From Escherichia coli (GTDB taxonomy: Bacteria; Pseudomonadota; Gammaproteobacteria; Enterobacterales; Enterobacteriaceae), in the NCBI RefSeq assembly GCF_045037415.1, contig NZ_CP173438.1: 64,000 bases of DNA. One strand, given 5' to 3'. The notes under the pieces were generated by a model. The model worked only from the letters and a program-made list of their open reading frames with translations. It was not told where the DNA came from and searched no databases. Each line of letters opens with the position of its first letter. Within the stretch, counting starts at the first letter, position 1. The translations under genes and the position numbers were made by a program. Shown here piece by piece: positions 52,386 through 56,642 of this stretch.

Positions 52386-54341
52386 ATGCGGTTGTTTATT
52401 GCCGAAAAACCGAGTCTGGCGCGCGCCATTGCTGATGTCCTGCCTAAACCGCACCGGAAAGGCGATGGCTTTATCGAGTGCGGTAATGGTCAGGTGGTGA
52501 CCTGGTGTATCGGTCACCTGCTTGAGCAGGCGCAGCCAGACGCCTACGACAGCCGCTATGCGCGCTGGAATCTTGCGGATTTGCCAATTGTCCCGGAAAA
52601 GTGGCAATTACAGCCCCGACCCTCCGTGACTAAACAACTTAATGTCATCAAACGCTTCCTGCATGAAGCCAGCGAAATCGTTCACGCCGGAGACCCGGAT
52701 CGCGAAGGGCAACTGCTGGTGGATGAAGTGCTGGACTACCTGCAACTGGCACCGGAAAAGCGCCAGCAGGTACAGCGTTGTTTGATAAACGACTTGAACC
52801 CGCAGGCGGTTGAGCGGGCGATCGATCGTCTTCGCTCCAATAGCGAGTTTGTACCGCTGTGCGTTTCTGCACTGGCGCGGGCGCGGGCTGACTGGCTGTA
52901 CGGCATTAATATGACCCGTGCGTATACCATTCTCGGCCGCAATGCCGGTTATCAGGGTGTGCTTTCCGTGGGACGCGTGCAGACGCCCGTACTCGGACTG
53001 GTGGTGCGCCGCGACGAAGAGATTGAAAACTTCGTGGCGAAAGACTTCTTTGAAGTCAAAGCACATATCGTGACACCTGCCGATGAGCGGTTTACCGCTA
53101 TCTGGCAACCGAGCGAAGCGTGTGAACCGTACCAGGATGAAGAAGGGCGCTTGTTACATCGTCCACTGGCGGAGCATGTGGTTAACCGTATTAGTGGTCA
53201 ACCAGCTATTGTCACCAGCTATAACGATAAACGGGAATCAGAATCCGCGCCGCTGCCTTTTTCGCTTTCGGCGTTGCAGATTGAAGCGGCTAAACGTTTT
53301 GGTCTGAGCGCGCAGAACGTGCTTGATATCTGCCAGAAGCTGTACGAAACGTACAAGCTAATCACTTATCCGCGTTCCGATTGCCGCTATTTGCCAGAAG
53401 AACATTTTGCCGGACGCCACGCGGTGATGAATGCTATCAGCGTTCATGCACCGGATCTGTTGCCGCAGCCAGTGGTAGATCCAGATATACGCAACCGCTG
53501 TTGGGATGACAAAAAGGTCGATGCGCACCACGCCATCATTCCGACCGCACGGAGTTCTGCGATCAACCTGACGGAGAACGAAGCGAAGGTCTATAACCTG
53601 ATTGCCCGTCAGTACTTGATGCAGTTCTGCCCGGATGCGGTGTTCCGCAAGTGTGTTATCGAACTGGACATTGCCAAAGGCAAATTTGTCGCTAAAGCCC
53701 GTTTTCTTGCTGAAGCAGGCTGGCGCACGCTGTTAGGCAGCAAAGAGCGCGATGAAGAAAACGACGGCACGCCGCTGCCTGTGGTGGCGAAAGGCGATGA
53801 ATTGTTGTGCGAAAAAGGCGAAGTGGTAGAGCGGCAAACCCAGCCGCCGCGCCATTTTACCGATGCAACACTGCTTTCGGCGATGACCGGGATCGCGCGC
53901 TTTGTGCAGGACAAAGATCTGAAAAAGATCCTTCGTGCGACCGATGGTCTGGGGACAGAAGCAACGCGTGCCGGGATTATTGAACTGTTGTTCAAGCGGG
54001 GTTTCCTGACCAAAAAAGGGCGCTATATCCACTCCACCGACGCCGGAAAAGCGCTATTCCATTCGCTGCCAGAAATGGCGACGCGACCGGACATGACCGC
54101 GCACTGGGAATCGGTGCTGACGCAAATCAGCGAAAAGCAGTGTCGCTATCAGGACTTTATGCAGCCGCTGGTGGGGACATTGTACCAGTTGATTGATCAG
54201 GCAAAGCGCACGTCGGTAAGGCAGTTTCGGGGAATAATGGCTCCCGGCGGTGGAGAAGGGAAGAAAAAGGATTCGCCACGCAAGAGAGCGCCGAAAAAAA
54301 GCCCGCCATCAGAAGAGGCGGGCAATGGAGTGATAATATAA
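52386..54341 (+). CDS. topB: DNA topoisomerase III
   Basis: ORF 52329-54341; first ATG after selD stop at 52386 ([49 protein letters not shown]...), 651 codons; Lys-rich C-terminus. Confidence 0.94.
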
Positions 54342-54377
54342 AGGTTCTTTCAACCATCTGATACTGAAGATTTTTAT

Positions 54378-54410
54378 GGCCGGATAAGGCGTTTGCGCTG
54401 TATCCGGCAC
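54378..54410 (-). repeat. REP (repetitive extragenic palindrome) element
   Basis: Minus strand reads GCCGGATACAGCGCAAACGCCTTATCCGGCC, matching the E. coli REP family (GCCGGATGCGGCGTAAACGCCTTATCCGGCC); lies in the 76-bp gap between convergent topB and gdhA. Confidence 0.55.
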
Positions 54411-54417
54411 AATTGTC

Positions 54418-55761
54418 TTAAATCACGCCCTGGCTTAACATCGCATCCGCAACCTTCACAAAACCGGCAATGTTCGCGCCCTGCACGTAGTTGGTTTGCT
54501 CACCTTCACCACCATGCTCAACACAGGCATGGTGGATATCCAGCATGATGTGATGCAAACGTGCGTCAACTTTCTCGGCTTTCCAGCCCAGGCGCGCAGC
54601 GTTTTGCGCCATTTCCAGGCCCGATGTTGCTACACCGCCAGCATTAGCCGCTTTACCCGGTGCAAACAGTACGCCTGCCTGCTGGAACAGTTCAGTCGCT
54701 TCGATGGTGGTCGGCATATTTGCCCCTTCGGCGACGGCTTTAACGCCATTGGCGATAAGCTGATGCGCGGCGTCAACATCCAGTTCGTTCTGGGTGGCGC
54801 AAGGCAGGGCGATATCAACCGGTACAGACCACGGTTGTTGGCCTTCGAGATAGACCAGACCAAATTCTTTGGCGTAATCTGCCACTCGACCATCGCGGCT
54901 GGCTTTGATTTCGATAAGGCGCGCCAGTTTCTCTTTCGTGAATCCGCTTTCATCAACTACAGTGCCGCTGGAGTCTGACGCAGTGATCACTCGAGCACCA
55001 AATTCCATCGCTTTTTCGATAGCGTACTGGGCGACGTTGCCGGAGCCAGAAACGGAAACGCGCATCCCTTCAAAACCCATACCGTGGCGTTTTAGCATTG
55101 CTTCTGTGAAATAAACCAGACCGTAGCCGGTAGCTTCCGGGCGAATAAGACTGCCGCCAAATGAAAGGCCCTTACCGGTGAAGACGCAGGCGGTATTGTT
55201 GGAGAGCTTTTTCATCATCCCCGCCATAAAGCCGACTTCACGACCACCAACGCCGATATCACCTGCCGGAACGTCAGTATCCGCGCCCAGGTGGCGATAC
55301 AGTTCAGTCATCAGCGCCTGGCAGAAACGCATAACTTCGCCTTCGCTTTTCCCTTTCGGATCAAAGTCGCTGCCGCCTTTACCACCACCCATCGGCAGAG
55401 TAGTCAGGGCATTTTTAAAGGTTTGCTCGAAGCCGAGGAATTTGAGAATGGAAAGGTTTACTGAAGGGTGGAAGCGCATACCGCCTTTGTACGGACCGAT
55501 GGCGGAGCTGAATTGCACACGCCATGCACGGTTGACCTGCACCTGGTTGCGATCATCAACCCATACTACGCGAAATTGGATCACGCGCTCCGGTTCAACC
55601 AGACGCTCCAGTAATGACATCTGACGATATTTGGGATTTTGTTCAAGAAAAGGCCAGAGTGTGGTCATTACTTCACGAACGGCTTGCGCGAACTCGGTTT
55701 GATTCGGGTCGCGCTTTTGGACATGGTTGAGGAATGACTCCAGAGAATATGTCTGATCCAT
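54418..55761 (-). CDS. gdhA: NADP-specific glutamate dehydrogenase
   Basis: 447-aa ORF MDQTYSLESFLNHVQKRDPNQTEFAQAVREVMTTLWPFLEQNPKYRQ...; KGGMRFHP motif. Confidence 0.97.
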   Translation of the reverse strand: MDQTYSLESFLNHVQKRDPNQTEFAQAVREVMTTLWPFLEQNPKYRQMSLLERLVEPERVIQFRVVWVDDRNQVQVNRAWRVQFSSAIGPYKGGMRFHPSVNLSILKFLGFEQTFKNALTTLPMGGGKGGSDFDPKGKSEGEVMRFCQALMTELYRHLGADTDVPAGDIGVGGREVGFMAGMMKKLSNNTACVFTGKGLSFGGSLIRPEATGYGLVYFTEAMLKRHGMGFEGMRVSVSGSGNVAQYAIEKAMEFGARVITASDSSGTVVDESGFTKEKLARLIEIKASRDGRVADYAKEFGLVYLEGQQPWSVPVDIALPCATQNELDVDAAHQLIANGVKAVAEGANMPTTIEATELFQQAGVLFAPGKAANAGGVATSGLEMAQNAARLGWKAEKVDARLHHIMLDIHHACVEHGGEGEQTNYVQGANIAGFVKVADAMLSQGVI

Positions 55762-55996: not shown

Positions 55997-56269
55997 GTGA
56001 GTCGAGCATTGATCGCCGTAGTATTAGCATTTCCATTAATTACACTGGCTAACCCGCATTATCATCCGGACGTGGAGGTAAACGTACCGCCAGAAGTGTT
56101 CAGTTCAGGCGGGCAGTCAGCGCAGCCCTGTACTCAGTGCTGCGTTTATCAGGATCAAAATTATTCTGAAGGGGCAGTAATTAAAGCCGAAGGAATACTG
56201 CTGCAATGCCAACGGGATGACAAAACCCTAAGCACTAATCCGCTGGTCTGGCGGCGCGTGAAGCCATAA
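55997..56269 (+). CDS. ynjH: DUF1496 family secreted protein
   Basis: 90-aa ORF, GTG start after AAGGAG; MSRALIAVVLAFPLITLANPHYHPDVEVNVPPEVFSSGG...; signal peptide. Confidence 0.88.
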   Translation: MSRALIAVVLAFPLITLANPHYHPDVEVNVPPEVFSSGGQSAQPCTQCCVYQDQNYSEGAVIKAEGILLQCQRDDKTLSTNPLVWRRVKP

Positions 56270-56642
56270 ACGCCTCTAATAATGGAATGTCAGCAGGGGC
56301 CAGCGGATATCGCAGCGCCTCTTCAGGTGAGCACCAGACCAGCGCCTGATGTTCATGTGCCTGTAACGTCCCGTGGAAGTCGGGTACGTGCCAGGCATGA
56401 AGATGGATAATCCGCCCCGAAACTTCTCGCTGATGGCTGGCAACATAGTCACCAACAGTTGCTTCGATGCCCAGTTCTTCGTTTAACTCACGCACCAGCG
56501 CCTGCCGCTGGCTTTCATCCGGCTCGATTTTACCACCGGCAAACTCCCATAATCCCGCCTGATCGCTCTGGGCAGGGCGTTGCGCGAGTAAAATTTTGCC
56601 ATCACGTTCGATGATGGCGGCAACAACTTCAATCATTTTCAT
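56235..56642 (-). CDS. nudG: Nudix CTP pyrophosphohydrolase
   Basis: 135-aa ORF MKMIEVVAAIIERDGKILLAQRPAQSDQAGLWEFAGGKIEPDESQRQALVRELNEELGIEA (Nudix box visible); 3' end overlaps ynjH by 35 bp. Confidence 0.94.
   Translation of the reverse strand: MKMIEVVAAIIERDGKILLAQRPAQSDQAGLWEFAGGKIEPDESQRQALVRELNEELGIEATVGDYVASHQREVSGRIIHLHAWHVPDFHGTLQAHEHQALVWCSPEEALRYPLAPADIPLLEAFMASRAARPAD

Follow-up and report, generated by a model that had tools for sequence, protein, structure and literature searches.

Between the convergent genes topB and gdhA, Escherichia coli K-12 carries a further gene, ynjI, whereas in the DNA studied here the two genes directly face each other across a short spacer that contains a REP palindrome. 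This raises the question of whether the present arrangement results from the loss of a gene or K-12 has gained one, and whether the palindrome is a trace of that event. The features that define the junction are given below with their positions in the window, that is, the whole 64-kb stretch of DNA that was analysed:

52386 to 54341, + strand: topB, encoding DNA topoisomerase III (651 aa), with its stop codon TAA at 54339-54341, from the list of open reading frames and the RefSeq annotation of SK1144.
54418 to 55761, - strand: gdhA, encoding NADP-specific glutamate dehydrogenase (447 aa), with its stop codon at 54418-54420.
54342 to 54417: convergent intergenic spacer of 76 bp, from the topB stop to the gdhA stop.

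The distance of 76 bp given by the first-pass annotation is borne out by the list of open reading frames, the sequence and the annotation of SK1144. The latter belongs to phylogroup B2 (PMC12366417), its junction is 100% identical to that of the window over a 1.2-kb query, and its RefSeq gene order is topB (651 aa), 76 bp, gdhA and then ynjH, nudG, ynjF and ynjE. In MG1655, the order is gdhA (b1761), ynjI (b1762, 1041 bp, 346 aa) and topB (b1763), and YnjI belongs to the DUF1266 family (Pfam E = 1.8e-25). The earlier placement of a DUF1266 gene of about 1 kb between gdhA and topB in K-12 was thus correct, and a 76-bp spacer is not found in MG1655. The difference in gene content at this site, also claimed beforehand, is equally real, as YnjI finds no counterpart in the 64-kb window (best tblastn E 0.81, no open reading frame or remnant) and neither the MG1655 insert nor the DNA flanking ynjI has a blastn match there with E below 0.8. 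Therefore, ynjI, described as a DUF1266 inner-membrane protein gene, occupies in K-12 exactly the junction that is empty in the window, and it is K-12 that very probably shows the inserted, non-ancestral state, for the reasons that follow.

The gene itself bears marks of foreign origin. The GC content is 41% in ynjI and 35% in the spacer upstream of it, as opposed to 53-55% in topB and gdhA, and the gene is subject to partial repression by H-NS/StpA and to activation by BglJ-RcsB (PMC3950696); both low GC content and H-NS/StpA repression are typical of acquired DNA. Moreover, MG1655 carries two REPs, Y and Z2 (a BIME), between ynjI and gdhA, and the flanks of ynjI are collinear with an uninterrupted BIME spacer of 188 bp in Citrobacter sp. 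NCU1. The collinear parts of MG1655 comprise the end of the TopB tail followed by 'GCGTAAGCGAGTG' on one side, and the pair of Y and Z2 REPs next to gdhA on the other. At the position of the K-12 ynjI cassette of ~1.17 kb, Citrobacter sp. NCU1 has a single Z2-type REP. Since ynjI is AT-rich and its flanks match a spacer that lacks the interruption, the K-12 gene is best read as an insertion into a REP cluster. IS1 has in turn interrupted ynjI in several strains of the K-12 type, where the gene is annotated as two DUF1266 fragments.

The polarity of the difference can be judged from other species. A TopB query against one genome per species returned 80 loci, in 57 of which gdhA lies convergently downstream of topB, and in 51 of these 57 species representatives the spacer is shorter than 500 bp, typically 30-120 bp. 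Short spacers occur in E. albertii, Escherichia sp. E1V33, the divergent E. coli lineage L005 and Salmonella enterica subsp. diarizonae, as well as in many Citrobacter, Enterobacter and Kosakonia. In Cedecea, Buttiauxella, Serratia and Yersinia, gdhA was undetected downstream of topB, and ynjH follows topB directly. Among the species representatives, ynjI at the topB-gdhA site is limited to MG1655-type E. coli and Escherichia sp. MOD1-EC7003 (91% amino acid identity). Thus, the description of ynjI as missing, in the sense of a loss, has the polarity reversed, because direct adjacency of topB and gdhA is the norm. Beyond gene order, the end of topB in the window and the REP behind it can be aligned, base by base, to their counterparts in E. 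albertii, E1V33, L005 and E200086, a divergent E. coli; as an illustration, ...GAAGATTTTTAT-GGCCGGATAAGGCGTTTGCGCTGTATCCGGCA in the window corresponds to ...GAAGGTTTTCGTAGGCCGGATAAGGCGTTTACGCCGCATCCGGCA in L005. The number of REPs at the site varies among these lineages, with three in E. albertii, one plus a truncated second in L005, L006 and E200086, and one in genomes of the window type.

The comparison of the window with MG1655 and 536 indicates that the difference extends beyond the spacer into topB, where the following segment can be delimited:

54179 to 54341, + strand: hypervariable 3' end of topB, the last ~54 codons, which encode a lysine/arginine-rich tail and make up the left-hand portion of the variable segment.

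Over the first 1793 bp of topB, the window is 97.0% identical to MG1655 and 99.5% to 536, whereas over the last 163 bp, from 54179, identity falls to 66.9% and 53.6%, respectively. In the alignment of the three haplotypes the drop is abrupt, after 54178 and within the gene. The tail of TopB ends in ...SPPADEVGSGAIA in MG1655 and in ...KPKTDNTDSAN in 536, and the window differs from both, its tail being of the type found in E. albertii, Escherichia sp. E1V33 and L005. From the gdhA stop codon onward (TTAAATCAC) the three haplotypes align again, which sets an exact right boundary, and gdhA is 96.7% identical to that of MG1655 and 98.8% to that of 536. Hence, the block that differs among haplotypes comprises the last ~54 codons of topB and everything up to the gdhA stop, and each block carries a TopB tail of its own. 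Across E. coli haplotypes, DNA identity in the tail is 50-67%, as opposed to 97-99.5% in the preceding part of topB. Among Escherichia lineages, the tail is a mosaic, exemplified by E1V33 with a K-12-like middle part and a window-like end, and TopB of the Enterobacter type (about 635 aa) is devoid of most of it. In E. albertii NBRC 107761 (L007:6151-6153), an in-frame TAG cuts TopB to 624 aa, with the tail-coding sequence still recognisable downstream, which suggests either that the tail is dispensable or that the TAG is a sequencing error.

Within E. coli, the window represents one of several states of the junction. Among 5426 complete genomes, a contiguous junction like that of the window is found in 1515 (28%), so that the first-pass annotation erred in calling the arrangement strain-specific. 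The 76-bp spacer, searched with a 101-bp query at a coverage of at least 80%, is present in 1495 genomes and always at topB|gdhA. Strains 20 and U1 share it, no more than two single bases being different in the aligned junction. The empty alleles form two divergence classes, one of 1153 genomes at 99% identity or more and the other, at lower identity, made up of the rest. In turn, ynjI is present in 3506 of the 5426 genomes, while pieces of the island of strain 536 at 95% identity or more occur in 348 and the full island in 61. The genes on this 6-kb island, located between topB and gdhA (L004:16175-21792), code for a member of the Hsp70 family with 43% identity to HscC and for two J-domain/Sel1-repeat proteins. 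In ~3907 genomes, the two halves of the junction query lie at separate places, a number that roughly equals the ynjI and island classes, so the counts would leave little room for genomes with an empty junction and ynjI elsewhere. The difference in gene content between topB and gdhA is thus a common polymorphism, ordinary and widespread, although searches on ynjI and DUF1266 found no paper that deals with it.

Regarding strain 536, a segment of ~127 bp in the spacer between topB and the Hsp70 gene (L004:15868-15995) has matches of 90-92% identity at unannotated places in ~5000 genomes of E. coli, with several such places in each, and probably represents a repeat of the ERIC/IRU type, dispersed between genes. 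A defence system was considered as the cargo of the 536 island and rejected, as PADLOC gave no credible match: the PtuA hit is a short stretch in the Sel1-repeat region and that to PDC-M61B has E = 6e-4.

Taken together, the adjacency of topB and gdhA in outgroups, the orthology of the tail and the REP, the flanks of ynjI in MG1655 and the low GC content and H-NS repression of this gene argue that the empty junction is the ancestral type and ynjI a gain of K-12-type strains. We consider it highly probable that the allele of the window is of the ancestral type without insertion, which characterises a large fraction of E. coli, and that its spacer holds a decayed resident REP. According to this explanation, topB and gdhA would have been convergent neighbours since before Escherichia split from Salmonella and Citrobacter, and the short spacer between them would long have been home to a REP or BIME whose copy number drifted, to three in E. 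albertii, ~1.5 in other Escherichia and one here. A cassette of ~1.2 kb, AT-rich and partly silenced by H-NS/StpA, would have landed in such a REP cluster in K-12-type strains as ynjI, and strains of the 536 type would have received the 6-kb island of Hsp70 and J-domain/Sel1 genes instead. These alleles would be swapped as blocks by homologous recombination, with crossovers in the conserved part of topB (left of ~54179) and in gdhA, which would account for the C-terminal TopB tail proper to each block. In RefSeq, neither the ynjI cassette nor the 536 island has an annotated integrase or tRNA, and the boundaries of the blocks are consistent with homologous replacement instead of an integrase-mediated island.

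The presence of ynjI at the same site in one Escherichia outside E. coli, MOD1-EC7003, is a counterpoint to this explanation, as it implies that the insertion is either old or has crossed lineage borders. Consequently, vertical retention of the empty allele in this strain is inseparable from its re-import by recombination. An ancestor bearing cargo, either ynjI or the Hsp70/J-Sel1 island, might have regained an empty allele from another Escherichia lineage. The occurrence of ynjI outside E. coli and the mosaic tails of TopB, such as that of E1V33, speak for such a replacement, as does the comparison with 536, since flanks nearly identical up to 54178 in topB and again in gdhA enclose wholly different DNA, a pattern that points to recent exchange of blocks among close strains. 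However, the exchange between 536 and the window may have gone in either direction, outside E. coli no state is as widespread as the empty allele, which makes simple retention more parsimonious, and the empty alleles within E. coli fall into two divergence classes. We therefore hold re-import to be unlikely, albeit with some weight left to it, and it would change the history of the allele but not its nature.

As in the 'hot regions' of the E. coli pangenome, the same pair of core genes flanks at least three contents, namely none, ynjI, and the Hsp70 and J-domain/Sel1 island. This site differs from such regions in that its E. coli cargo has no annotated integrase or tRNA gene in RefSeq and in that it begins, on the left, within the coding 3' end of topB. 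Cargo at topB is also found in other genera (MFS/enolase/LysR, Hcp, TRAP transporter and RpiR genes), and the 3' side of topB is a recurrent insertion hotspot across Enterobacteriaceae. In Klebsiella spallanzanii (L028:8950-15935), an MFS transporter, an enolase-superfamily enzyme and a LysR regulator are followed by an Hsp70 and a Sel1 protein, the former with 77% amino acid identity to the 536 protein. In further genera (L047, L050, L059, L069, L033 and L046), genes encoding a T6SS Hcp, the TRAP transporter DctM or an RpiR regulator lie directly downstream of topB.

The K-12 locus hscC-djlC-ybeU-ybeT-djlB-ybeR-ybeQ holds Hsp70, J-domain, Sel1 and DUF1266 genes together. Because both cargos known from E. 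coli come from gene families that are represented in this locus, they are possibly fragments of one module. Extended to the whole site, the idea would be that of a hotspot of cassette exchange, whose cargo arrives with its own TopB tail, where ynjI and the Hsp70/J/Sel1 genes would be alternative fragments of a repeatedly captured HscC-like chaperone module and the variation of the tail might matter for topoisomerase III. We offer it as a speculation of low probability. YnjI has no BLASTP similarity to YbeR or YbeU at E < 1e-3, though all three are annotated as DUF1266.

A loss of ynjI has to be weighed as well, since the first-pass annotation regarded REPs as breakpoints of small indels. On that account, a K-12-like allele would have lost the gene by a small deletion between REPs and the single REP of the window would be the scar. 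MG1655 does possess two REPs, the BIME between ynjI and gdhA, on which such an event could act, and REP copy number at the site does vary across Escherichia lineages. Nevertheless, a deletion of this kind should leave behind a TopB tail of the K-12 type and traces of the REP cluster of K-12, neither of which is present in the window: over its last 163 bp, topB is 67% identical to MG1655, compared with 97% upstream, and the intergenic DNA of K-12 has no blast match to the spacer of the window. The REP of the window is Y-type-like and orthologous to those of E. albertii, E1V33 and L005, all without ynjI, and is not the Z2 REP that K-12 carries on the gdhA side. Adjacency is, in addition, the ancestral enterobacterial state. 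The proposed breakpoint is thus not upheld and a deletion is very improbable; the palindrome has the appearance of an old resident of the spacer and not of a deletion scar, in keeping with an ancestral-type junction.

The palindrome and the remains of its 5' tag are located as follows:

54379 to 54408, + strand: REP palindrome, Y-type-like, GCCGGATAAGGCG TTTG CGCTGTATCCGGC, with a single exact match in the window, a minimum-free-energy hairpin and orthologous REPs in other genomes.
54375 to 54378, + strand: decayed REP 5' tag TATG, where orthologues have GTAG followed by G, a difference that corresponds to a G-to-A change and a 1-bp deletion.

The extended stem spans 54377-54411, and the hairpin makes up ~35 of the 76 bp of the spacer, leaving 35-37 bp of non-REP sequence on the topB side. 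The earlier statement that the spacer is essentially one REP palindrome thus holds for the presence and number of the element and overstates its extent. Folded as RNA, the spacer reaches -24.6 kcal/mol (z = -3.6), and 1 of 200 shuffled sequences folds equally well. The palindrome lies wholly inside the 76-bp spacer between two stop codons and has a 12-bp stem with a 1x1 internal mismatch, the arms matching GCCGGATAAGGCG and ATCCGGC. It shares with Y-type REPs (or PUs) of E. coli the form of an extragenic, imperfect palindrome of ~30-35 nt, with GCCGGATAAGGCG...ATCCGGC arms, between convergent genes, and its internal mismatch sits at the position of the AA/GC bulge of REPs. Membership in the REP family is based on orthology to REPs of other Escherichia and on matches at other loci, as the REP part of the spacer is 84-94% identical to other sites in other E. 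coli genomes, e.g., near yhaL. By two simple consensus half-site patterns, the 64-kb window contains essentially no further REP copies.

However, the element departs from typical REPs and BIMEs in three respects. The tag is mutated (AT-G), the window reading TAT-G compared with GTAG in L005, L007 and L087 and GTAA in L006. The second arm is degenerate, its distal part reading CGCTGT where CGCCGC is expected. Finally, the REP is single, whereas a BIME comprises at least two alternating REPs with a linker. The orthologues in other Escherichia are canonical GTAG-tagged REPs, in E. albertii in a BIME arrangement, and the window copy is best described as a decayed, REP-derived palindrome without an intact tag. 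REPs of E. coli are imperfect palindromes with a 5' GTAG, which is essential for binding and cleavage by TnpA_REP and tolerates no mutation (PMC8266576). Since its tag is mutated, the window REP is probably no longer a substrate of the REP transposase and would persist as an immobile relic that has kept the ability to form a hairpin.

The hairpin could also be devoted to intrinsic termination in both directions, or constitute the gene of a small RNA, and resemble REPs incidentally, a proposal that has the strength of the fold and a weak match to the small-RNA family naRNA4 (Rfam RF02564, REP325-derived nucleoid-associated RNA; 32.8 bits, E = 4e-4) in its favour but to which we attach next to no credence, because naRNA4 is itself REP-derived and its score falls far below the gathering threshold of 59.5, the orthologues carry the canonical tag, and no T-run follows the stem on either strand. 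With regard to the last point, a terminator scan of 54000-54800 returned 0 terminator-like sites and no U-tract, and, on visual inspection, the sequence after the stem reads CAATTGTC on the + strand and ATAAAAATC on the - strand.

The REP begins 9 nt past the gdhA stop and 37 nt past that of topB. When a REP is no more than 15 nt away from a stop codon, it is reported to make ribosomes stall at termination and to reduce expression (Liang, Rudd and Deutscher 2015, as summarised in PMC12306157). The window REP lies within that range for gdhA and outside it for topB, and it resembles the stop-proximal REPs of that summary in distance. By analogy, it may dampen the translation of GdhA. Most likely, the REP would provide the 3'-end stem-loop of the gdhA mRNA and block exonucleases, and the hairpin may also pause transcription. 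MG1655 has a different, Z2-type REP 8 nt after the gdhA stop and 536 a non-REP hairpin ~10 nt after it. Moreover, of 31 spacers of different species, drawn from the window (54358-54420) and L005-L070, 24 fold significantly better than shuffled sequences in the 60 nt 3' of the gdhA stop (z < -2; median z over the spacers -3.0), which argues for a conserved structural role, and it appears that structure at this position is conserved while sequence varies. In most genera, hairpins of unrelated sequence (Y REP, Z REP or non-REP) lie ~0-13 nt from the gdhA stop.

The use of K-12 as a yardstick inverts the polarity at this locus, where the gene that seems missing is very probably a gain of the K-12 lineage and the window shows the default enterobacterial arrangement. 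Beyond correct annotation this matters little. The junction nevertheless provides a small example of a hotspot flanked by core genes that extends on its left side into a coding 3' end, of REP-cluster turnover across Escherichia (3, 1.5 and 1 copies), and of a hairpin after the gdhA stop whose structure is conserved among unrelated sequences. Nearby, ynjH (55997-56269, + strand) and nudG (56235-56642, - strand) are likewise convergent and overlap by 35 bp at their coding 3' ends, as they do in MG1655.
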